Source: Escherichia phage sortregn. From it: a stretch of DNA of 38,200 bases. The notes beneath the pieces are model-generated. The model ran no database searches and was not told the DNA's origin. It saw nothing but the letters and a program-made list of their open reading frames with translations. The stretch lies in the sequence record MN850588.1, one strand, 5' to 3'. The translations under genes were made by a program, and so were the position numbers. Of the stretch, positions 1,538 to 21,449 are shown piece after piece; the stretch's first letter is position 1; each line of letters starts with the position of its first letter.

Positions 1538-3580
1538 TTAAAAACCCTCATTCATGAATACTTTGTTAGTGATAACGTCTTTACCCTTGCCGATCTTCCG
1601 GTGGGTAACTTTCAGTGGGGCCATGAAGTACGGCGCGAAGGCGAGGACCTCCTGGGGCGTCCGTAGCTTCTTGATGTCGGCCCGTTTCTTTCCGTCCAGT
1701 ACGTGCTTAAGGATCCCATTGTGGAGCCATTCCTTTTTCGCCTGTGGGCTATCGCTACCGGGCCAGAATACTTGCCACGCCACGAACTGATCGCCGTCCT
1801 TCTCCAACTCGTACCGGAAGGCGATCCCCCCAGTCCCTCGCGCCAATTCCAGACGGAAGCCCCTCACGTTGTAGTAGTCGTCCCTGCTGTACGTGGTCCG
1901 GCTTAAGTTCTTGTTCGGATCTACGAGCGAGTTCCCGCAGCAGCGGCAGATCCTGGCTACGATGTCGTTTTGTGCGCCGCATCCCTTCTGTACCACCTTC
2001 CGCCCGCTGGAGTCCTTCCAGTCGTCGCAGGTGATGAACTGGAAAAAGTGTTCGCAGCGTTCGCCAGTGTCGGGATCGACGTAGCGGCAGCGTCGGGCGT
2101 GTTTGCCGTTTAGCGTCGGGTGGCCCGCCTTGCGACACTTCGGACAGTCTAACTCTAATTCTCCTTTGCTCTCGTCTGCGCTGTGCTGGTATGCCTCCAG
2201 CAGCGGGGAGAAATACAGGGATCCGAGTTCGTCAAGCGTCCCGGCATAGTCGAGGACCAGGTGATCCTCCTTCGTCACCCCGGCGGCGATGTGGAACGGC
2301 TTAAGGATGCGCATACCACGGCCTAAAAGCTGGGTTAGGAGCGTGAGGGATCCGATCTTCCGCAGTATCACGGACGTGTCCCAGAACGGGACGTTAACGC
2401 CAGTCGTTAGGGCGTTAACCTGGAATATAAATTTGATCTCCCCGGTATTGGCGCGGCGCAAAATGTCCATGCGCTTCTTGCCCGTCGTGTCGTCCGTGAT
2501 GATGGCGTAAGGCGTACCAGGGGGAAGGGCCTCCGCCGCCTGTTTGCAGTGTCTCACGCCCGCACACGTCACTAACACGCCGTTCCTGTGCTGGGCGATG
2601 GCGTATACCTCCGCCATGATCTCATGCGTGAGCTTTTTGTCCTTAAGGATCGCCTTTTGCATGGCGTCCATTTCGGCGTCCGTGAACTCCTTAATGCCAT
2701 CCTCGCCGGACGATCGCCACTGGTCGAGGTTGTAGTGGAGATTGGAGATCCCGAAGTGAGTCGGAACAACCGCGCCGACGCTTACCAGGTATTCCGTCGA
2801 GATCTCGCATACCTTCTTACGCCAAAATCCGGGCTGTTCGAGGTCTGGCTGGATGATGGACTCCACGCCACGGTATGGCGTCCCGGTGTAGCCAATAATG
2901 CGGAGTTCCTTCCCGTAGACCTCGCGGGCGCGTTGCTGGAATGTGCGGATAATGATCGTATAGCTGGAGCGACCCGCCTCGATCATCTCCTCGTAAGTCT
3001 CGCCCTTGTGCTCGCCGATAATGGTCGGCTCGTCGAAGCCGTCCAGGATGATCTCCCCGGTTTTCTCGTCCCGCAGGTACTCCGGGACCACGCGCTCCTG
3101 TGAGCGGATCAGGTCCTCAATGTTGACGTGATGGCATTCATCGATCAGCAGGAACAGCGGCGCGTAATGGGCGAGTGCCTGACCTGGGCGGAGTCCTCCG
3201 ATCACTGTACCCTCGGAGCCGACCACGATCGGGAAGTGTGCAGACTTGCGGCCCAGGCTGGCGCAGTAGATCGAGGAGTTCACGCCGAAGTTTTTCAACT
3301 CCTCGAAGTCCTGATCGATGATCTCCCCCTGGCGGGACAGGATCATGGCAGGGAAACCCATATCCCTGATCCGGCGGGCCAGCATGGAGATCATGATGGT
3401 TTTACCCGCACTCACGGCGGCGTCCACAATGACCGGGCCAGGATAGCGACGGATGGCCTCCGCGCAAGCCTCATACGCGACGAACTGGTGATCGTATGGT
3501 GTAACGGGCATATCTCCCAGGGCGCGGAGAATCGCGTCCCGGTCGAGCGCTTCGATCTGTTTCTCCAATGTCATTAACAT
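1538..3580 (-). CDS. SF2 DEAH-box DNA helicase with C-terminal zinc-ribbon region
   Basis: 680 aa ORF; Walker A AAVSAGKT, motif II LLIDECHH, motif III YTGTP, motif VI QLLGRGMR; cysteine clusters CPKCRK, CRCCG. Confidence 0.8.
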   Translation of the reverse strand: MLMTLEKQIEALDRDAILRALGDMPVTPYDHQFVAYEACAEAIRRYPGPVIVDAAVSAGKTIMISMLARRIRDMGFPAMILSRQGEIIDQDFEELKNFGVNSSIYCASLGRKSAHFPIVVGSEGTVIGGLRPGQALAHYAPLFLLIDECHHVNIEDLIRSQERVVPEYLRDEKTGEIILDGFDEPTIIGEHKGETYEEMIEAGRSSYTIIIRTFQQRAREVYGKELRIIGYTGTPYRGVESIIQPDLEQPGFWRKKVCEISTEYLVSVGAVVPTHFGISNLHYNLDQWRSSGEDGIKEFTDAEMDAMQKAILKDKKLTHEIMAEVYAIAQHRNGVLVTCAGVRHCKQAAEALPPGTPYAIITDDTTGKKRMDILRRANTGEIKFIFQVNALTTGVNVPFWDTSVILRKIGSLTLLTQLLGRGMRILKPFHIAAGVTKEDHLVLDYAGTLDELGSLYFSPLLEAYQHSADESKGELELDCPKCRKAGHPTLNGKHARRCRYVDPDTGERCEHFFQFITCDDWKDSSGRKVVQKGCGAQNDIVARICRCCGNSLVDPNKNLSRTTYSRDDYYNVRGFRLELARGTGGIAFRYELEKDGDQFVAWQVFWPGSDSPQAKKEWLHNGILKHVLDGKKRADIKKLRTPQEVLAFAPYFMAPLKVTHRKIGKGKDVITNKVFMNEGF
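1823..1833 (-). repeat. CTGGGGGGATC 11-mer copy (sense strand of helicase gene)
   Basis: Exact match read on minus strand; frame-checked against helicase residues T583-G-G-I586. Confidence 0.85.
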
Positions 3581-3645
3581 TGTTTATCCCTTGTAATATC
3601 ACTAAAGCATGATTTATAGTAACCGGGAAATAACCGGAGGGCAAT
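3581..3645. promoter_or_regulatory. divergent promoter region between helicase and primase operons
   Basis: 65-bp AT-rich intergenic region between divergent genes; tandem GTAACCGG / ATAACCGG repeats just upstream of the primase SD. Confidence 0.4.
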
Positions 3646-4464
3646 ATGGCGATCTACAAAAAAGAGGACGTTCTCGCGGCGATGCCCGGCAAATGGGAAC
3701 AGGCGCTCCTCGATCTTTGTGGCTGGGACCGCAAGGCGTTTAACGGCAATCATCAACCTTGCCCGATCTGTGGCGGGACGGACCGCTTTCGCTGGGGCCA
3801 TAAGCAACAGACGAAGAAGGCGGAGGGCTTCGGCTACTGTTCCGGCTCCTGTGGCGGCGCTCGTGATGGCATGTTTTGGTTCATGACCAGCCGATCGCAG
3901 CCGTTCAACGAGGCGATCAACGACCTGGGCGACTGGATAGGCGGACTCACCCCGGAGAAGCGGGAAACCATCGTCAAGGAGGCGCGGAAGTATGCCCGCC
4001 AGCAGGATAAGCCCGCGCAGGACTGGGAACTCACCCCGGAGGACGTGGACAAGATCATGAGCAAAGGCACGATGCGCGACGGATTCCTGTATGTTCCATG
4101 CGCTCGTCCACTGGGGGGATCCCTGGGGCCGTGGTGCAACGTGGCGAAGATCGGCTCCGACAGGTCCGTGGTGTTTGCCGCTGGTGGCCCGACGTGGGGC
4201 GCGGTAGGTCTGATCCACCCAGTGCCAGACGCTCCGGTGTATCTGGTGGCGGATCCGGTCCATGCGGTGAACGTGGCGGCGCGAGGGGAGGCGGAGGTCT
4301 GGCTTACGTTCCGGCCTATGAACGCGGTCCAGGCGTCGGCGATATATGACGGCGATCGGGAGATCCGGTTCGTCTACACTGACCCGGACGAGGTTTTCCT
4401 GTACGGCTACGAGAGGACGGGGAGGCCATGCGTCGGCGGGCATCTTGCCGGGGCGTTCGGGTAA
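3646..4464 (+). CDS. DNA primase (zinc-ribbon plus TOPRIM-like region)
   Basis: HQPCPICGGTDRFRW and GYCSGSCGG match the primase zinc-binding ribbon of P4-alpha-like primases; later DGD acidic motif; GGAGGG SD upstream. Confidence 0.65.
   Translation: MAIYKKEDVLAAMPGKWEQALLDLCGWDRKAFNGNHQPCPICGGTDRFRWGHKQQTKKAEGFGYCSGSCGGARDGMFWFMTSRSQPFNEAINDLGDWIGGLTPEKRETIVKEARKYARQQDKPAQDWELTPEDVDKIMSKGTMRDGFLYVPCARPLGGSLGPWCNVAKIGSDRSVVFAAGGPTWGAVGLIHPVPDAPVYLVADPVHAVNVAARGEAEVWLTFRPMNAVQASAIYDGDREIRFVYTDPDEVFLYGYERTGRPCVGGHLAGAFG
4111..4121 (+). repeat. CTGGGGGGATC 11-mer copy
   Basis: Exact match; frame-checked against primase residues L156-G-G-S159. Confidence 0.85.
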
Positions 4465-4489
4465 AAAAAAAGGCCCCGCACGAGGGGCC
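4463..4489 (-). terminator. intrinsic terminator oriented for leftward transcription
   Basis: GGCCCC-GCACGA-GGGGCC hairpin 4472-4489 preceded on plus strand by A9, so U9 follows the hairpin on the minus transcript. Confidence 0.55.
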
Positions 4490-4542
4490 AGTGGGCGCGA
4501 CCGATACCAGCGGGCGCTAAAGCAATGGTGAACAGTCAACAA

Positions 4543-4564
4543 ATAGCACTTTTTGTTAAAACAC
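4543..4564 (+). promoter_or_regulatory. conserved promoter-like element copy 1 (ATAGCACTTTTTGTTAAAACAC)
   Basis: 22-mer shared with 6855-6876 (2 mismatches), each about 60-70 bp upstream of a rightward operon start. Confidence 0.35.
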
Positions 4565-4616
4565 AAAACAGTTAATCAATTATCGTTAGTCACCACCAAC
4601 CAAAGAAGGGCAGCAG

Positions 4617-5258
4617 ATGAAAGACGAGAAAGACACCACCACGATCGATCATGTGGACGGCATGACCGAGGCGGAACGCGCAGCGGCAGACGTGACCACT
4701 GTTAGCGGTCGCCGCTTCAACAAATCCAAGACGCCGGACGCTATCCGCCAGAAGTGGCAGACCCCGCGCTGGCTGTTCGACTGGGCCGTGAAGCGCTTCG
4801 GGCAATTCGGGATCGATGTGGCAGCAGAAAAGGCTAACGCCCTTTGTGATGTCTACCTGGACGAGAAAACGGACGCCCTCAAGGATGGCGTGGAGTGGGG
4901 AGCCGAGGGCGGGCTGGCGTGGTGTAACCCGCCATACGCGGAGCCGCTTCCGTGGATCGTGAAGGCCATCCAGCAAGCGAAGGATCGCGACGTTACGACC
5001 GTGTTTCTCCTGAACTCCGACGCGTCTACGGCGTGGTTTAAGAAGGCGCTGGACGCCGGGAGCCTGGTTATCCATATCACCAGCGACGGCGAGAACTCCG
5101 GGCGCGTGGCGTTCGTGAAGGCCGGGACCGAAGTCGCGGGCAAGAAGAACAGCAAGCCGTCCGTAATGTTCGTTATCAAGCCGAAGAAGCGCGGACCGAT
5201 CAAGACTGAATATCTGACCCAGGCGGAGATGATGTTCGAAGGCAAAACGATGATTTAA
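4617..5258 (+). CDS. DNA N6-adenine methyltransferase (phage Dam-like)
   Basis: 213 aa; WQTPRWLFDW N-terminal motif and NPPY catalytic motif (WCNPPYAEP) typical of the phage N6A methylase family. Confidence 0.8.
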   Translation: MKDEKDTTTIDHVDGMTEAERAAADVTTVSGRRFNKSKTPDAIRQKWQTPRWLFDWAVKRFGQFGIDVAAEKANALCDVYLDEKTDALKDGVEWGAEGGLAWCNPPYAEPLPWIVKAIQQAKDRDVTTVFLLNSDASTAWFKKALDAGSLVIHITSDGENSGRVAFVKAGTEVAGKKNSKPSVMFVIKPKKRGPIKTEYLTQAEMMFEGKTMI

Positions 5259-5274
5259 CCGAGAGGACCCAGAG

Positions 5275-5856
5275 ATGATTATTTATGCACCAGTAAGCGC
5301 CTTACGCGCTCACCAACTGACCAAAGGCCAGCAGGACGTCCGCTATTACCTGAACGCGATCCACTTCATCGGCAACCGGATCCGCACGTCTAACGGTCAT
5401 GTTTGCATGGAAAGCACCCATAAGCTCGTCAACGCGCCGGAGGAGGGGATCATCCTCTCAATCTCCACGCCACCGACTGGGCGGATCTTCTCCGCCGTGA
5501 TCGACACGGACGCCGGGATCGTGTACTGGCTGGACATTCCGGCAGATAAGCCGAAGGACCTCGAAGAAGTGGACCACAAAAAGGCCCGCGTCGCTGTGGG
5601 GACCGTGGACATTGTGGAGGCCAATTATCCGAACGTGGACGCACTCCTGAACAAGGCCCGCGAGAACTCGAAGGCCGTCCACGAGATCGGCGTGGCGACG
5701 CCTTACCTCGGAATGATCGAGAAGCTGGCGAAGAAGTTCGGGATCAAGATGCCTTTTGCGAAACTGAACTTTAACGGCGCAGCGGAGCCGATCCGCGTGA
5801 ACCTGACCACGCCGGACGGCGAGGCCACCCTGATCATTATGCCCGCGAGAGTGTAA
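5275..5856 (+). CDS. hypothetical protein
   Basis: 193 aa ORF in Dam operon, no recognised motif. Confidence 0.5.
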   Translation: MIIYAPVSALRAHQLTKGQQDVRYYLNAIHFIGNRIRTSNGHVCMESTHKLVNAPEEGIILSISTPPTGRIFSAVIDTDAGIVYWLDIPADKPKDLEEVDHKKARVAVGTVDIVEANYPNVDALLNKARENSKAVHEIGVATPYLGMIEKLAKKFGIKMPFAKLNFNGAAEPIRVNLTTPDGEATLIIMPARV

Positions 5857-5858
5857 GC

Positions 5859-6083
5859 ATGGGACCTTATCAGACCTACCGCTGGAAATATTTCGTCCGT
5901 TGCGTGGCGGACGAACTCATGGATCGTAAACTGGTGGCCTCCCGCGAGGAGGCCGAGCACTTCGCCGAAGATCTGGAGGATTCGTTCGCGGAGGACTACG
6001 ACCCGCGTCCGATCTCAGAATGGCGAGCTATCGCGAAGAAAGACGCAGACGACTACGAGAAGGATCTGAAACGTGAAGCATAA
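5859..6083 (+). CDS. hypothetical acidic protein
   Basis: 74 aa ORF, tightly packed after preceding gene. Confidence 0.4.
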   Translation: MGPYQTYRWKYFVRCVADELMDRKLVASREEAEHFAEDLEDSFAEDYDPRPISEWRAIAKKDADDYEKDLKREA

Positions 6084-6825
6084 GGCGATCTTTTTATTCA
6101 ACCTGACCCGGATCATGGTGGACAAGTGGCTGGACGCTGGCGTGGAATGCTGGATGTATGACGGGCAGCACGAGCCAGGGATCCACCCAGACGCCGACGA
6201 GCCGAACCTGATCCGAGTGGGCCGGATGTTCGACGCGGACAACTCAATCAGGGAAGCGGCTCGCATCGCCGAGGAAGTCGGCCCCGGCGTGATCTTCGTG
6301 GCGTCCTTCGCTGAATGCACCGATCTAACCTGTACCGGGGCGCGATGGTGGGAAGCGAAGCGCAAGAAGGATCCGCGCTTCCAGGAGAAGGCCGTGGCGC
6401 TGGCTAAGATGGTGAAGCACGTCGCGGAATTTTGCAGCGTGGAGAACGGCAGCTTTGAACCCGCTTCGACGGTCCCCTGGATGCTGGAGAATCCGAAGAT
6501 CTCCCGACTCTCCACGATGTGGCGACCTTGCGATCACTGGTTCCACCCCTACAACTTCGGCGGCTACTTGCCGGAGGATCACCAGCATAGCCTCTACCCG
6601 GAGATCTACCCGGCGCGGGACGCGTACCCGAAGCAGACGGGGATCTGGTGCGGTGGCGGCTTCAAGATGCCGGAACACAAGAACGTCCCGGCGGTTAAGG
6701 ATAATCCCGGATGGTCGAAGCTGGGCGGATCTTCGACCCGAACGAAGAACATCCGCAGCGCCACCCCCGAAGGCTTCGCCGTCGCCGTGTTTATCTACAA
6801 CGCCACCCCGATCGCTCCATTCTGA
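6073..6825 (+). CDS. hypothetical protein
   Basis: 250 aa ORF with GTG start overlapping previous stop, followed by intrinsic terminator; no confident domain call. Confidence 0.5.
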   Translation: MKHKAIFLFNLTRIMVDKWLDAGVECWMYDGQHEPGIHPDADEPNLIRVGRMFDADNSIREAARIAEEVGPGVIFVASFAECTDLTCTGARWWEAKRKKDPRFQEKAVALAKMVKHVAEFCSVENGSFEPASTVPWMLENPKISRLSTMWRPCDHWFHPYNFGGYLPEDHQHSLYPEIYPARDAYPKQTGIWCGGGFKMPEHKNVPAVKDNPGWSKLGGSSTRTKNIRSATPEGFAVAVFIYNATPIAPF

Positions 6826-6830
6826 CACAA

Positions 6831-6850
6831 GGCCCTCCGGGGCCTTTTTT
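6831..6850 (+). terminator. intrinsic terminator
   Basis: GGCCC-TCCG-GGGCC hairpin followed by TTTTTT. Confidence 0.65.
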
Positions 6851-6854
6851 GCGT

Positions 6855-6876
6855 ATAGCACTTTTTGCTAAAGCAC
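6855..6876 (+). promoter_or_regulatory. conserved promoter-like element copy 2 (ATAGCACTTTTTGCTAAAGCAC)
   Basis: See copy 1; both followed by CAATTATC and CACCAAC-like segments. Confidence 0.35.
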
Positions 6877-6927
6877 TTTCAATTATCCTTTGTTATTATT
6901 CTTTCACACCAACACGAGGACGACGAA

Positions 6928-7152
6928 ATGAAACAGACTTTACTCCCGACCAAAACAAACAAGGCTCAACTGGTTAACCCGCTGTTACTGAAACAGGCGC
7001 ACATCCTGATCGAGGTGGCGATGATTCTCCGTAATCGCCTGAAAATGTACGCCGCCGGGCCAGCAGCTACAGCAGCTTTAAAGCGCGAGGCTCGCCAGGC
7101 AGAGGACGACGCTCGCGAACTGATCCGAGGCGCTTATGGTTATCGCCCGTAA
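6928..7152 (+). CDS. hypothetical protein
   Basis: ORF 6865..7152 with start moved to ATG 6928 preceded by GAGGA. Confidence 0.45.
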   Translation: MKQTLLPTKTNKAQLVNPLLLKQAHILIEVAMILRNRLKMYAAGPAATAALKREARQAEDDARELIRGAYGYRP

Positions 7153-7411
7153 GACTTCGCGCCGGGAGTTATGGGAGGCGGCGCAAGCCGCCGAACTGGA
7201 CGGCATGATCAGCGCAGTCTCCCGCGTGTTCGGCAAGGAGGCGATCGCCGACATATCGATCGAGACGCCGGACGGCGAGATGTACCTGAACAACCCGGAC
7301 CCGCACCACTGGCGCGTCGTGCCTGGGACTAAAGGCGGAAAGAACGCTCTCAAAGACGCGATCGCCGACACCAAAAACCGGAAGCACCTCAAAGGGGGAT
7401 CTCGTGGGTAA
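7136..7411 (+). CDS. hypothetical protein
   Basis: 91 aa ORF overlapping neighbours. Confidence 0.4.
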   Translation: MVIARKTSRRELWEAAQAAELDGMISAVSRVFGKEAIADISIETPDGEMYLNNPDPHHWRVVPGTKGGKNALKDAIADTKNRKHLKGGSRG

Positions 7412-7796
7412 AGTAACAGCGAAGATTATCGGATGGACTGACGAGCAGGACGCGGAACTGGTTCGCCTGGCTGGAACCATGCCAGCGCCGGACCTGGCGA
7501 AGAAGATAAAACGCAACTTCCGCCAGATGCAGGTCCAGGCGTCGAAGCTGGGGATCTCCCTGGCGTACCGCAGGACGTACACGCAATGGACAGCGGAGGA
7601 GGACCGGAAGCTGGTCCGCTTCTGGGAGGATAAACTGACCCCGGAGGACGTGGTGGAGATCGCAGAGACTACGGGGATCTATGAAGTGACCCGCGACGAA
7701 CTGACACACGAGCACGTCGCGACCTGGCTCGACAAATCGCGCCCGGCAGTACGCGGACGCCTGGCAAAATTCAAGAAAGAGGGGAAAATAGCATGA
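7404..7796 (+). CDS. putative DNA-binding protein with two W-x-x-E-(E/Q)-D helix motifs (GcrA/Myb-like)
   Basis: GTG start after GGGGG SD; GWTDEQDAELVRLAG and QWTAEEDRKLVRFW resemble GcrA N-terminal / Myb-SANT DNA-binding repeats. Confidence 0.45.
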   Translation: MGKVTAKIIGWTDEQDAELVRLAGTMPAPDLAKKIKRNFRQMQVQASKLGISLAYRRTYTQWTAEEDRKLVRFWEDKLTPEDVVEIAETTGIYEVTRDELTHEHVATWLDKSRPAVRGRLAKFKKEGKIA

Positions 7797-7895
7797 CTGA
7801 CTTACGCGGAAGTAAATACGTTATATGGGGCGTAATCGCAGCCAGCGCCGCGCTGTGGGCTTTAATCGGTTTTGGCGTGTCGATGGTACTCTAAA
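7793..7895 (+). CDS. possible small membrane protein (33 aa)
   Basis: ATGA overlap with preceding gene, hydrophobic sequence, terminator follows; below ORF-track size cutoff. Confidence 0.25.
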
Positions 7896-7930
7896 AAAAA
7901 GGGCCGCTTAAAAAGCGGCTCCTTTCGTTT
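7894..7930. terminator. bidirectional intrinsic terminator
   Basis: A8, GCCGCTT-AAA-AAGCGGC hairpin, then T-rich tract. Confidence 0.6.
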
Positions 7931-7990
7931 AAACGCCAGAGATGATCTACAATGCCCCGGCAGTATAACCAAACAAGAGAGGACCCGACA

Positions 7991-8788
7991 ATGGGGAATT
8001 TTTGGACCTACCACGAGAACACCCAGCGCGGCGGGATCGAACTGGGCCGAGTAATCGACCCGGCGAAAGCCTCGCGCCCGGTGATCTACCTAGAATCAGA
8101 TCCGCCAGGTCTGGACGCGGCGAAGGTTTCCGCCTTCATGCCGTACTACGTTTACACTCCGATGTCCTTCACTCAGGACTTGCCGGGAGTGGCTGGTGGC
8201 GATGCCGCCGCGACCTTCGTCCCTGGGGGGAGCACGTTCTCCGCGACGGTCGAAGTCGCCGGAGGTCAAGCGCCGTTTACTTATCAGTGGTACAAGTTTA
8301 GCGGCGGAGTCGGAACGGCGATCACGCTGGCGCAGAACGCCACGGCCCAGTCGAAGGTATTCCAGATCACCAACTACACCGCAGCGGCTCAACCCGGATC
8401 CGGTAACGGTGATTGGTATGTTGTCGTAACCGACGCGACCGGGGCCACGCTCCAGTCTCAGCGCATCCGCACGAAACAGGCGATCGCCTACTCCGTCAAC
8501 CTACCGACGACCGACACCTGGACCGTCGGGACCGCCGACGCCTTAACCGTCACCGTGAACGCGGCTACGGGCCTTGCGCCGTATACTCATGAATGGTTTA
8601 AGGATGGCGTTTCTCAGGGGCCGGGGACGTCGAGCGGGACGGGGAACGCGACCTCCACGCTATCGAAGGCAAGCCCGGCAGCGGGCGACGCTGGCGTGTA
8701 TTATTGCATTTCCACCAGCGCCAACACGAACCCGCCGAAAACCATCCAGAGCATTTCTTGCACTGTAACCGTTAACCCGGCAGCATAA
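7991..8788 (+). CDS. Ig-like domain protein (two Ig-like repeats)
   Basis: ORF 7952..8788, start moved to ATG 7991 after AGAGAGGA; repeats FTYQWYKF...DWYVVVTD and YTHEWFKDG...GVYYCIS resemble Ig I-set strands. Confidence 0.6.
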   Translation: MGNFWTYHENTQRGGIELGRVIDPAKASRPVIYLESDPPGLDAAKVSAFMPYYVYTPMSFTQDLPGVAGGDAAATFVPGGSTFSATVEVAGGQAPFTYQWYKFSGGVGTAITLAQNATAQSKVFQITNYTAAAQPGSGNGDWYVVVTDATGATLQSQRIRTKQAIAYSVNLPTTDTWTVGTADALTVTVNAATGLAPYTHEWFKDGVSQGPGTSSGTGNATSTLSKASPAAGDAGVYYCISTSANTNPPKTIQSISCTVTVNPAA

Positions 8789-8798
8789 GGAGCCGACT

Positions 8799-9011
8799 AT
8801 GTTTTATCACTCGCAGGACCTACCGGAGCGCGGCGGCGTTCTACTGACGAAGATCGCGGATCCTGGTTCGGCCCAGGTACAAGCGCGGGATCTGGTCTGG
8901 CTGGATGCTGACCCGACGGGCGGATCGTGGGAGCCACTCCCGGCAGTGTTCGACAAGGTGGACGCCTCCGGGCTGGAGAATCACCTCTCCTACTTCATCC
9001 CATACGCATAA
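8799..9011 (+). CDS. hypothetical protein
   Basis: 70 aa ORF with AGGAG SD, same operon as Ig-like gene. Confidence 0.45.
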   Translation: MFYHSQDLPERGGVLLTKIADPGSAQVQARDLVWLDADPTGGSWEPLPAVFDKVDASGLENHLSYFIPYA

Positions 9012-9040
9012 AAAAGGGGGCCAATCGGCCCCCTGTTTAC
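9010..9040. terminator. bidirectional terminator between convergent genes
   Basis: A6, GGGGGCC-AATC-GGCCCCC hairpin, then TGTTTAC. Confidence 0.65.
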
Positions 9041-11693: not shown

Positions 11694-11766
11694 CGTTATC
11701 TCTCCGGTAGTGGGCGACCCATTGCCGCCCGGTGAAAGAACTATAACAACATTTGATAAATCGCTT

Positions 11767-12420
11767 TTAGCAATTCGTGCTATTCGGATAAAGATACTCG
11801 CTCAACCGGGCCACCAGCGGCTCGTCTGGACCGAACTCAAACAGCCCGCCGTCGTTCTTGATCGAGTGGTGGATCTCCGCCAGTAACGTCTCCGCCCGCT
11901 GGAGCCTGGACGCCGCCGCGTTATCATGCCCGATCAGCTTCGTGATCTCCTCCTCCAGATCAGCGCCGAGCGCCGACGTCGCCCAGTGTTCGGCATACTC
12001 GCGATCCTTCAACAACCGGATCAGGGCCAACACGTCCGACTCGATACCGACAGTCGGGCCAGGCTGGAGCCGTGGCTGGATCTCGTCGAGCGTCTGCTGG
12101 GTAGCGTTCAACGTCCGGCGGATCTTGTCCTGTTCGGCCTTGCTCAGGTCCAGGATCAGCGGCGAAGCCGGGAGGCCATTTAACCAGGCGATCAGGTCGT
12201 CGTAAGGCATGACGGAATAAGCCTTCTCCGACGCGTACCCGGTGATCCGCCAGTCAGTGGTCGAACTGTACGCCTCGGAAATATCATCCTCCCGCAATTC
12301 GCGATAGACGATCTCAGCGCGACCGTTGTCGATCTTGCTCAGGCTCTCGATCAGCGTCTCCGGGATGTGGATCACTTCTTCGCCATTCTTAACGGCGGTT
12401 ACTGCGACATATCTGATCAT
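11767..12420 (-). CDS. hypothetical protein
   Basis: ORF 11767..12447 with start moved to ATG 12420 (GAGGAAAGAGAG upstream, ATGA overlap with upstream gene). Confidence 0.5.
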   Translation of the reverse strand: MIRYVAVTAVKNGEEVIHIPETLIESLSKIDNGRAEIVYRELREDDISEAYSSTTDWRITGYASEKAYSVMPYDDLIAWLNGLPASPLILDLSKAEQDKIRRTLNATQQTLDEIQPRLQPGPTVGIESDVLALIRLLKDREYAEHWATSALGADLEEEITKLIGHDNAAASRLQRAETLLAEIHHSIKNDGGLFEFGPDEPLVARLSEYLYPNSTNC

Positions 12421-19214: not shown

Positions 19215-21449
19215 ATGGCACGAGTTAAAAAATCGGTGCAGAACTGGCAGGAATGCGCCCGGAAGAAATTAAGCGCCGCGATCGGGGCGGAGGACACCAG
19301 CCGCAAGAAGATGATCGAAACGGCGCGATTTGTCCGCATTCCTGGCGCTCAGTGGGAAGGCTCCACGAACTCCGGCTTTGCGATGGATGATGAACGTTTC
19401 CAGAAATACCCGCGATTTGAGCTAAACAAGGTCGGGCGCGAGGTGGATCGCATCATTTCAGACTACCGCCTGAACCGCGTAAACGTCACGTTCCGCCCGA
19501 AGGACACCCAGGCCTCCGAAGAACTGGCGGACAAGCTGAACGGCAAGTTTCGCGCAGACTTCAACGAGTCGAACGGCTCCGAAGCCGTGGACAACACCTA
19601 CGAGGACGGCGTGACGGGCGGAATGGGCGCTTTCCGCATGGACACCGAACTGGAGGACGAGTTCGACCCGGACAACGAACAGCGTCACATTGTTTTTTAC
19701 CCGATCTATGATCCGGCCTCGTGCCTGTTTATCGATCAGGACTCCAAGATGTACGATCGCAGTGATGCTATGTGGATGGCGGAGCTATTCAGCATGACCC
19801 CGGACAAGTACGAGGAGCGCTATCCCGACGCCCTCGCCCCGGAGGACCTGATGGCGATCGATACCGGGAAACAATTCGACTGGGCCACGAAGGACGCGAT
19901 CTATCTGGCGCGTTACTACGAGGTGAAGATCGAGGACACCACCGTGATCTCCTACAAGAACCCGTTAACCGGGGAGGTGGAGGTCTACGACGAGGACGAG
20001 ATCGAGCAGATCGAGGACGAACTGGAGGCCGGAGGCTGGGAACGCCAGAAGGATCGCAAGGTCAAGCGCCGCAAGGTCTATTGCGGACTTATGACTGGTG
20101 GCGAATGGCTGGAGGAGCCGAAGCTGATCCCGTTCGAGTGGATCCCGATCTTCGTGTTCAACGCCCGCCGCTCGTTCATCGACAACATGGAACGCGTAAG
20201 CGGTCACGCGACCCAGGCCCTCGACGCGCAACGTCTGGAAAACCTGATCGTGTCCATGATGGCGGACCAGGCCGCGCAGTCTGGCGGCGATAACATCCCG
20301 ATCATGGACATTGATATGATTCCCGGAGCGCTGGCTGACGCCTGGGGGGAACGTAACACGAAGCGCCCGGCATACTTGCCCGCTAAATCGCTCCGTAACG
20401 CCGCTGGTGAGGTTGTGCAGCAAGCCGGGCCACTGGGTTACACGCCATCGACGCCGCTCTCTCCGGCGCTGGCAGCGGTCCTACAGTACACCGGGAGCAC
20501 TATCCAGCAGATCGTCGGCTCGTCCCAGGTGGAGGCGTTACCGTCGAACCTGGCGACCGAAACCGTGGAGGCCATTTTCGCCCGTATGGACGGACAGGGC
20601 GCTCTCTACATGGACAACCTGGGGAAAACGCTCCGCCACTGTGGGCGCGTGTACCTCAGCGCGGCCCGCAAGGTCTACGGCTCGGAGAATTACGTCCGCG
20701 TGAAGAACGAGGACGGGACCGACGATCTCGTGTTAATGACCGGGAAAGTGATCGATCGTGACACGGACGAGGCGATCGCGATTAACGACCTCAAGCGCGG
20801 GAAATATGAGGTCGAGGCCGACGTGGGCGAGTCCTCCCAGACGAAGCGCGTCGCAACCGTTCGCAGCCTGACGAATCTCCTCCAGTCCATGCAGCCTGGC
20901 GACCCGAACGCCGCCGTAGTGATGGGCCTGATCATCATGAACATGGACGGCGAAGGCTTGCAGGACTTCAAGGAATACAGCCGCCGCCAGCTTCTCCTGA
21001 ATGGCATCGTGAAGCCGCAGACGGACGAGGAGAAAGCGATGGTAGCCGAGGCCCAGCAAGCCGCCCAGCAGCAGCCGGACGCGCAGATGGTAGCCGCTCA
21101 GGGCGTAGCGCAGCAGGGACAGGCCGCAGTGATGGAGCAGGAGAACAAGCGTTTAGAACTGACGCTCAAGGCGCAGAGCACCGCGTCCGACGGTCAACTG
21201 AAAAACGCGCAGACGGTCAAGACGATGGCAGAGGCGGCGGCAATCCCGCAGGATCAGCTATTGAGCGCGATCGCCGTTCTCCAGAAGTACGTCTCCCAGC
21301 AGAACAGCGACGCCCACAAACAGGCGGATCTGTTCCTCAAGGCTCAGGGACAGGGCCACACCCAGCGCGAGGACCAGATGGCCCGCGAGATGGCAGAGCG
21401 CCAGGCATCGCAGAGCGCCGATCGTCAACTGGGATTAGCTGGCCTGTAA
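19215..21449 (+). CDS. portal protein (P22 gp1-like, Q/A-rich helical C-terminus)
   Basis: 744 aa, follows TerL, GGAGAA SD, intrinsic terminator after stop. Confidence 0.8.
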   Translation: MARVKKSVQNWQECARKKLSAAIGAEDTSRKKMIETARFVRIPGAQWEGSTNSGFAMDDERFQKYPRFELNKVGREVDRIISDYRLNRVNVTFRPKDTQASEELADKLNGKFRADFNESNGSEAVDNTYEDGVTGGMGAFRMDTELEDEFDPDNEQRHIVFYPIYDPASCLFIDQDSKMYDRSDAMWMAELFSMTPDKYEERYPDALAPEDLMAIDTGKQFDWATKDAIYLARYYEVKIEDTTVISYKNPLTGEVEVYDEDEIEQIEDELEAGGWERQKDRKVKRRKVYCGLMTGGEWLEEPKLIPFEWIPIFVFNARRSFIDNMERVSGHATQALDAQRLENLIVSMMADQAAQSGGDNIPIMDIDMIPGALADAWGERNTKRPAYLPAKSLRNAAGEVVQQAGPLGYTPSTPLSPALAAVLQYTGSTIQQIVGSSQVEALPSNLATETVEAIFARMDGQGALYMDNLGKTLRHCGRVYLSAARKVYGSENYVRVKNEDGTDDLVLMTGKVIDRDTDEAIAINDLKRGKYEVEADVGESSQTKRVATVRSLTNLLQSMQPGDPNAAVVMGLIIMNMDGEGLQDFKEYSRRQLLLNGIVKPQTDEEKAMVAEAQQAAQQQPDAQMVAAQGVAQQGQAAVMEQENKRLELTLKAQSTASDGQLKNAQTVKTMAEAAAIPQDQLLSAIAVLQKYVSQQNSDAHKQADLFLKAQGQGHTQREDQMAREMAERQASQSADRQLGLAGL

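Follow-up and report, generated by a model that had tools for sequence, protein, structure and literature searches.

Why should a strong transcription terminator stand between two genes that are both read rightward, and point against them? The question is raised by positions 4463-4489 of Escherichia phage sortregn (MN850588.1; the window analysed here is the whole stretch of 38,200 nucleotides, and sortregn positions refer to it), where a G+C-rich hairpin joined to a run of A residues lies in the gap between the genes for the primase and the Dam methylase (dam). A first-pass annotation of this DNA had described the site as a strong intrinsic terminator directed against both flanking genes, stopping leftward transcription before the primase gene, and had deduced from it a leftward promoter or small antisense RNA in 4490-4616, or else an insulator that protects primase expression. 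The terminator itself is borne out by the stem, by the T9 tract, by the rarity of such sites under strict criteria and by the plus-strand orientation of both genes, and 4463-4489 is best supported, on the evidence of its sequence and that of its relatives, as a functional leftward Rho-independent terminator. It appears to be an orphan, antisense-oriented terminator and probably forms the 3' end of a small divergent RNA.

On the plus strand the element consists of AAAAAAAAA (A9, 4463-4471), exactly the run of nine that had been reported ahead of the hairpin, followed by GGCCCC gcacga GGGGCC (4472-4489). Read on the minus strand this becomes GGCCCCUCGUGCGGGGCC and then, with a gap of 0, U9, which is the G+C-rich stem-loop with a U-tract immediately 3' that characterises Rho-independent terminators. 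The energy of the hairpin is -12.6 to -13.8 kcal/mol, and the first two A residues of the run (4463-4464) are also the final two bases of the primase TAA stop codon (4462-4464). The plus strand 3' of the hairpin reads AGTGGGCGCG, with one T in 10 and no T-run, so that the signal is one-directional, leftward. Its 6-bp G+C-rich stem, 6-nt loop, nine U residues and energy of about -13 kcal/mol are like those of enterobacterial and phage Rho-independent terminators, and a comparable site at 9016-9033 on the minus strand closes the leftward lysis cluster of the same phage; unlike these, 4463-4489 has no detectable same-strand gene or convincing promoter upstream and is embedded in a 5.4-kb rightward gene block (3646-9011). 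The A-tract upstream of the hairpin also recalls bidirectional intrinsic terminators, in which an A-tract and a T-tract surround one hairpin, but at 4472-4489 the T-tract is absent and only the leftward half is kept.

A loose terminator pattern is not enriched in the window (10 found against 8.9 expected), and the energy of the hairpin is nothing exceptional for its G+C-rich surroundings (z about -1); strict criteria were therefore applied, namely a perfect stem of 6 bp or more in which five or more pairs are G:C, a loop of 3-8 nt and no fewer than 7 T among the 8 nt that follow. Five sites satisfy this definition, 4472-4489 among them, whereas 200 dinucleotide shuffles gave 0.015 on average. 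Of the remaining four, three (24999 and 35932 on the plus strand, 9016 on the minus strand) lie just 3' of a same-strand open reading frame (ORF), and the fourth (7903, minus strand) is bidirectional and lies inside the same rightward block as our element, so that three strict leftward terminators (9016, 7903 and 4472) follow one another in, or at the edge of, that block. Runs of at least 8 A or T occur at two loci only in the 38.2 kb, and G+C hairpins adjoin both. The other locus, 7893-7929, reads A8, then GGGCCGCTTAAAAAGCGGCTC, then CTTTCGTTT, and is itself a bidirectional terminator directed against the flow of the rightward block.

The gaps that follow the primase gene were compared in 18 phages from seven lineages (Murrayvirus, Sortsnevirus, Kc237, Skarprettervirus, Hungariovirus C130_2 with STP9, Kc166B, and Serratia phages Smarc2 and ChibiTotoro), whose primases range from 99% down to about 31-35% identity to that of sortregn. 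An A-run of 6-9 nt is present at the primase stop in 18/18, beginning in or right after the stop codon (in Kc166B just before it), and is followed at 0-1 nt in 18/18 by a G+C hairpin of -9 to -13 kcal/mol; a plus-strand T-run directly 3' of this first hairpin is found in 0/18. The stems differ by lineage (GGCCCC/GGGGCC, AGCCCC/GGGGCT, GCCGC.../...GCGGC, GCCAGGC/GCCTGGC and ACCCGGC/GCCGGGT): a hairpin of the sortregn type can be aligned in 11 Murrayvirus, Sortsnevirus and Kc237 sequences, five of which carry a compensatory change of the outer stem pair from G:C to A:U on both sides, and unrelated G+C hairpins occupy the same position in Skarpretter, C130_2/STP9, Kc166B and the Serratia phages. 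A G-U pair on the minus strand, which would be an A-C mismatch on the plus strand, makes the C130_2/STP9 hairpin more stable on the former (-11.5 kcal/mol) than on the latter (-8.5 kcal/mol). Structure is thus kept while sequence drifts, as is expected of Rho-independent terminators. The A-run is a mutable homopolymer (A8 in Salmonella phage Lumpael, A9 in sortregn), yet it is never shorter than 6 in the sample, which would be explained only by its service as the U-tract of a minus-strand RNA. Retention of the stem, its position and the one-sided homopolymer under such sequence turnover is what selection on a minus-strand terminator predicts, and the comparison indicates that the leftward terminator is under selection.

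The element is absent from Pectobacterium phage Taid, in which the next gene lies directly 3' of primase, and from Klebsiella phage KLB16, whose post-primase gap of 66 nt contains an ordinary promoter; the element and the large regulatory gap thus occur together. A primase-based scan of IMG/VR added two further contigs, and of the 19 stretches returned by a DNA-pattern scan only those from five phages already known were genuine. In six lineages 80-86 nt (standard deviation 1.75) separate the ATAGCA promoter motif from the start of the A-run, longer hairpins being offset by shorter spacers, and the spacing between promoter motif and next ATG is more variable (74-90 nt, standard deviation 7.1). 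This near-constant spacing, in a sample that is small and phylogenetically linked, favours a discrete unit.

RNA polymerase moving left from the primase-dam gap would transcribe the hairpin (4489-4472) and then the U9 tract, and the RNA would be released at about 4465-4463, on the primase stop codon, so that no antisense run into primase would follow. The substrate would be a short non-coding transcript of about 70-110 nt which starts in the AT-rich region, back to back with the dam promoter, includes a second conserved element (4495-4520) and ends at the terminator. Since terminator anatomy, orientation and position are kept in seven lineages, leftward transcription ending at the primase stop is the most economical reading. 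That the terminator forms the 3' end of a short leftward non-coding transcript, as in lambda oop, and also shields primase from antisense transcription is a proposal we hold with evenly balanced confidence: that such transcription occurs, where it starts and what role the RNA may have, either as antisense to primase-dam read-through mRNA or through transcriptional interference, is what we infer, whereas the anatomy, rarity and conservation of the terminator and the direction of the dam promoter module are what the sequences show.

Within the interval for which a leftward promoter had been suggested (4490-4616), the AT-rich region 4540-4616 is best explained as the rightward promoter of dam and not as a leftward one, because it holds an exact copy of a directional module whose copies always point with the downstream genes. 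The module consists of ATAGCACTTTTTGYTAAA, 21-22 nt, a -10-like hexamer, a CA-rich leader and a Shine-Dalgarno sequence; at dam the hexamer TATCGT is followed by the leader CACCACCAAC and a Shine-Dalgarno sequence. Three copies occur in the window, against 0.00 expected, and the T1-like phage aalborv has about 15, lying upstream of genes, co-oriented with them and spaced by 21-22 nt from -10 hexamers such as TATAAT and CATAAT. A blastn search with the 166-nt gap matched 903 phage records, and beyond 13 close relatives the matches listed are short, several per genome, fall in the promoter-motif part and come mostly from T1-like phages (Drexlerviridae). Murrayvirus-like podophages and T1-like Drexlerviridae have the module in common; the motif string turned up in no relevant paper, and this widely shared promoter motif is apparently undescribed so far. 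TTGTTA lies 4-5 nt too far upstream for a normal -35, which suggests that the module depends on a phage factor, and at dam a special upstream motif seems to take the place of a consensus -35. Of what the first-pass annotation had proposed, leftward termination before primase therefore stands, on anatomy and conservation, and the suggested leftward promoter gives way, in 4540-4616, to the dam module, the whole of 4490-4616 holding only weak leftward candidates. A module copy at about 20087-20170 of aalborv points against a leftward tail-gene block and faces, about 50 nt off, the A7-hairpin terminator of the major-tail gene; this layout mirrors that of sortregn and might produce a short antisense RNA in T1-like phages.

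The leftward sigma-70 candidates that a position-weight scan returned in 4490-4616 (Table 1) score 7-8 bits, where good promoters of this genome reach 12-14. One of them, the extended -10-like TGCTATTTG, is degenerate in sortregn, its last base being G and not T; better versions are present as TGCTATAGT in the Serratia phages, TGCTATTCT in C130_2/STP9/Kc166B and TGCTATTTT in Skarpretter. All 7 Murrayviruses have another, GATAAT, which the IME279/Kc237 group carries as CATAAT and Sortsne itself lacks; in Sortsne a leftward TTTATT-17-TAAATT scores 13.2 bits, equal to the rightward promoter of that phage. No leftward promoter candidate is conserved across the lineages. The minus strand of 4490-5300 holds no gene, and its promoter candidates are weak.

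Several observations weigh against a small leftward RNA and are best considered together. There is no convincing leftward sigma-70 promoter in the window, the best candidates (7-8 bits) lacking a -35 or the key -7 T. Part of the rightward motif, read as its reverse complement, gives the TGCTAT core of one candidate, and the critical -7 base is free to vary among the aalborv copies; the conservation of the extended -10 is therefore possibly incidental. The copy of the promoter module at 6855 has no adjoining leftward terminator, so that divergent transcription from modules of this class is not generally insulated, and the special feature is tied to the 4463-4489 site. The predicted RNAs of 70 nt and 109 nt fold no better than shuffled controls (z of -0.9 and -1.0; -0.9 to -1.2 over all folds), the second hairpin has no clear covariation support, no particular fold being favoured, and no Rfam family was reached at the gathering score, three matches with E-values of 1.3-3.6 lying far below threshold and being irrelevant. 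The 18 phages are related, so that the observations made on them are not independent, and the literature yielded no transcriptome, promoter or terminator study of these genera.

The pO-oop-terminator unit of lambda, between cII and O, resembles the unit proposed here: it is short and leftward, lies between rightward genes and beside replication genes, and receives a discrete 3' end from an intrinsic terminator close to where the upstream gene ends. In lambda, oop overlaps the cII 3' end substantially; in sortregn, by contrast, the overlap with primase would amount to no more than 2-3 nt, within the stop codon (4463-4464), and any antisense pairing would involve 3' untranslated or read-through RNA and not coding sequence. 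The proposed sortregn unit would also be unlike that of lambda in having only weak promoter candidates, in showing no homology of sequence or structure (no Rfam match, E-values up to 10) and in belonging to a lytic phage, with no lysogeny decision to be made. For lambda, pO activity is known to interfere with rightward transcription and oop RNA to be an antisense regulator (PMC3985674). A second parallel is offered by divergent non-coding transcripts arising from near-symmetric -10 elements, for which the passage of PMC10268837 that cites Warman et al. 2021 gives an optimum start spacing of 18 bp: in sortregn GATAAT (4584-4579) overlaps the rightward -10, and the predicted divergent start sites lie 18-21 bp apart, near that optimum. 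Unlike in the bidirectional promoters described there, however, the sortregn start sites are predicted only, the leftward candidate has no -35 and the rightward promoter uses its special upstream motif.

A more far-reaching form of the small-RNA reading is tentative and, in our judgement, rather less probable than the presence of a terminated leftward transcript as such. It would make the unit a new leftward small RNA of fixed length (about 70-110 nt) with the core CCGCUGGUAUC, lying between primase and the next operon and back to back with a T1-type middle promoter across a clade of lytic enterobacterial podophages (Murrayvirus, Sortsnevirus, Skarprettervirus, Hungariovirus, Kc166B-like and Serratia Smarc2-like phages), and it would have the unit time replication-gene expression in the manner of lambda pO/oop, by antisense action on primase-dam read-through mRNA or by promoter interference.

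The nearest rival, differing only in whether the RNA matters, is a pure insulator: a functional terminator which does no more than stop stray leftward transcription, the RNA product having no function. The stray transcripts would come from spurious initiation in the AT-rich promoter island, which has about 33% G+C (by eye) against 59% for the genome, or from residual read-through of the leftward lysis operon, and stopping them would keep primase transcription and the divergent early promoters at 3591-3644 free of collisions. The anatomy and conservation of the terminator fit this explanation equally well, and the lack of a good conserved leftward promoter, the lack of any structural signal in the putative RNA beyond the terminator and the three strong leftward terminators in series all speak for it. 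An insulator, however, needs neither the conserved block at 4495-4520 nor the fixed spacing of 80-86 nt, and the identical module at 6855 has no such guard. Moreover, two strong terminators and a 3.4-kb untranslated antisense stretch, on which Rho would normally act, stand in the way of read-through from 11783. We regard a pure insulator as unlikely, though less so than any of the explanations that follow.

These turn in part on the second conserved element. The block GCGCGACCGATACCAGCGGGCGCTAA (4495-4520) is invariant in Murrayvirus, Sortsnevirus and Kc237, which differ from one another in the promoter region beyond it, and a TTAGC-N2/6-GCTAA dyad takes its place in the distant lineages. It is read in different frames in different phages (GATACCAGCGG as GAT-ACC-AGC in sortregn against (C)GA-TAC-CAG in IME_EC2) and is therefore non-coding; it may fold as a second hairpin or be bound by a protein. 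One arm and the loop are sequence-specific and the other arm is variable. Within the block, TACCAGCGGGCGCTA corresponds to TAGCA-N5-TGCTA with 2 mismatches. Other assignments considered for these sequences were set aside: a Chi-like site is an imperfect match (GCTGGTAT against GCTGGTGG); TAGCA-N5-TGCTA as a symmetric operator shared with the second element was down-weighted, since the T1-like comparison shows an asymmetric directional motif; and a sigma-54 promoter reading of TAGCAC-N5-TGCTA has a spacing 2 nt short and AG in place of GG (by eye, against the consensus).

An improbable alternative is that the element serves the rightward primase mRNA, as a stabiliser of its 3' end or as a two-hairpin bidirectional terminator whose rightward half has decayed. 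The second hairpin of IME279, sortkaff, Kc237 and a related IMG/VR contig has TAA(A)TTTTT(T) after it on the plus strand, and the resulting layout of A-run, hairpin 1, hairpin 2 and T-run (A8 ... T5-6) could terminate in both directions, in this respect like the known bidirectional terminators; the module copy at 6855 is preceded by an ordinary co-directional terminator, and the primase of the T1-like Enterobacter phage Phc is followed by a normal plus-strand one. The T-run has been lost in sortregn and the other Murrayviruses, unlike in the IME279/Kc237 lineage. In sortregn itself neither hairpin is followed by a plus-strand T-run (the second being followed by TAAAGCAATG), and rightward intrinsic termination is not expected; a role as mRNA stabiliser would leave the A-run of all 18 phages unexplained, and a ribosome at the TAA, 7 nt before the stem, would be expected to cover the 5' arm. 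The effect of hairpin position relative to the stop codon is discussed in PMC4824070.

More doubtful still is an element acting as DNA, with A-tract, hairpin and conserved block recognised as part of a replication origin or priming site or as the binding site of a phage regulator. Such a role would suit the neighbouring replication genes (primase and helicase), the dyad symmetry of the conserved block and of its counterpart in distant lineages, the sequence-specific arm and loop beside a varying second arm, and the iteron-like repeats that follow the primase of Phc. It does not suit the full replacement of the hairpin sequence with stem, G+C content and homopolymer kept, which is the signature of an RNA terminator and not of a protein site. 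In addition, inspection of 4465-4616 by eye revealed neither iterons nor DnaA boxes, the AT and GC skew profiles track gene orientation and give no independent origin signal, and the T7-type primase recognition site GGTC of the conserved block falls in its variable part and was rejected. In Phc itself, a region of about 500 bp (2460-2960) that lies between the terminator of primase and the next promoter module has an AT-rich core and many repeats resembling (A/C)TCCTCCGCAAA, and looks like an iteron-type origin. A chance meeting of hairpin and homopolymer without function, to which the ordinary frequency of loose patterns and the ordinary energy might point, is effectively refuted by the rarity of strict sites, the layout kept in seven lineages and the covariation.

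No coding reading of the region survived either. The statement that no leftward gene is evident here agrees with our results: the only long minus-strand ORF, of 330 amino acids (3574-4566), spans the T-run and was ruled out as a gene, since a 1-nt change of run length (A8 against A9) splits it into two ORFs in Lumpael. Two plus-strand ORFs across the terminator (4346-4531 and 4428-4520) were ruled out, as the frame of the conserved motif differs among phages and the A8/A9 difference shifts the frame. The equivalent of the latter in ST231 (2932-3051) is annotated as a 39-amino-acid hypothetical protein across the A-run, hairpin and conserved block and is probably a mis-call, its frame not being kept in relatives. 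Transcriptional slippage or frameshifting on the A-run was also ruled out, because the TAA uses and precedes the run, and the gain or loss of an A keeps the stop. The difference between A9 in sortregn (4463-4471) and A8 in Lumpael (7464-7471), at 98.6% identity, may reflect real slippage or a sequencing artefact.

Table 1. Features of the sortregn window that bear on the element between primase and dam.
Feature	Position	Strand	Remarks
Helicase gene	1538-3580	-	neighbour left of primase
Primase gene	3646-4464	+	Pfam Zn_Ribbon_Prim, E-value 1.7e-6; DNA primase in Lumpael, IME_EC2 and other annotations
U-tract (T9 on minus strand, A9 on plus strand)	4463-4471	-	adjoins stem
Terminator stem-loop GGCCCC-ucgugc-GGGGCC	4472-4489	-	6 perfect G:C pairs, 6-nt loop
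Second conserved element GCGC...GATACCAGCGGGCGC-TAA	4495-4520		invariant alignment block; potential hairpin on either strand
Core of second element, GATACCAGCGG	4503-4513		in full GATACCAGCGG(G)CGCTAA
Leftward extended -10-like candidate TGCTATTTG	4540-4548	-	start about 4533; RNA about 68 nt
Leftward candidate TTAACT-16-AAAAGT	start about 4541	-	7.9-8.0 bits
Upstream motif ATAGCACTTTTTGTTAAA of rightward promoter module	4543-4560	+	exact copy of directional module
Leftward -10 candidate GATAAT (5/6 match)	4579-4584	-	poor -35 TTCTTT, spacer 17; 7.1-7.8 bits; start about 4572; RNA about 107 nt
-10-like TATCGT of dam promoter	4581-4586	+	22 nt after TTGTTA; predicted start near 4593; position-weight-matrix score 8.7-8.8
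Dam methylase gene	4617-5258	+	PF05869, E-value 5.7e-44
Promoter module copy	6855-6872	+	just after ordinary plus-strand terminator; same 21-22 nt geometry
Promoter module copy	11766-11783	-	heads leftward lysis cluster; same 21-22 nt geometry

The surroundings of the element are those of a known group of phages. A survey paper placed sortregn (MN850588) in Murrayvirus with Lumpael as its nearest relative, and the Murrayvirus-like group has been reported absent from viromes; bases 3000-6000 of sortregn share 98.6% identity with Lumpael and 91-93% with IME_EC2, sortsyn, ST231 and KMB41. The genes form a rightward block from 3646 to about 9011, a leftward one from 9037 to about 12977, a rightward one from 12992 to 35925 and a leftward one from about 36000 round to 3580. 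The gap between helicase and primase (3591-3644) holds overlapping divergent sigma-70-like promoters, TTGTAA-18-TATAGT on the plus strand (13.5 bits) and TTGCCC-17-TACTAT on the minus strand (10.9 bits), which are probably early promoters. Beside the bidirectional terminator at 7893-7929, a block at 7940-7993 (AGATGATCTACAATGCC..GG.A.TATAAC, containing TACAAT) is kept between Murrayvirus and Sortsne upstream of a Hoc-like/tail gene. It includes the ATG at 7952; an in-frame ATG at 7991 with a strong Shine-Dalgarno sequence, GAGAGGA, matches the annotated start in Sortsne and may be the true start of this gene. On the minus strand of the same block a promoter-like site, TTGTCG-18-TATACT (12.2 bits), faces the terminator at 7903.

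For the annotation of these phages, our results mean that a minus-strand terminator should be entered at this position and that the short plus-strand ORF called in ST231 should be dropped, and the promoter motif could help to mark out the transcription units of T1-like and Murrayvirus-like genomes by the hundred. If the transcript exists, the unit would be a conserved regulatory RNA or interference unit in poorly studied lytic coliphages, some of them candidates for therapy or biocontrol, and the design of lambda oop would be found to recur beside the replication genes of strictly lytic phages.

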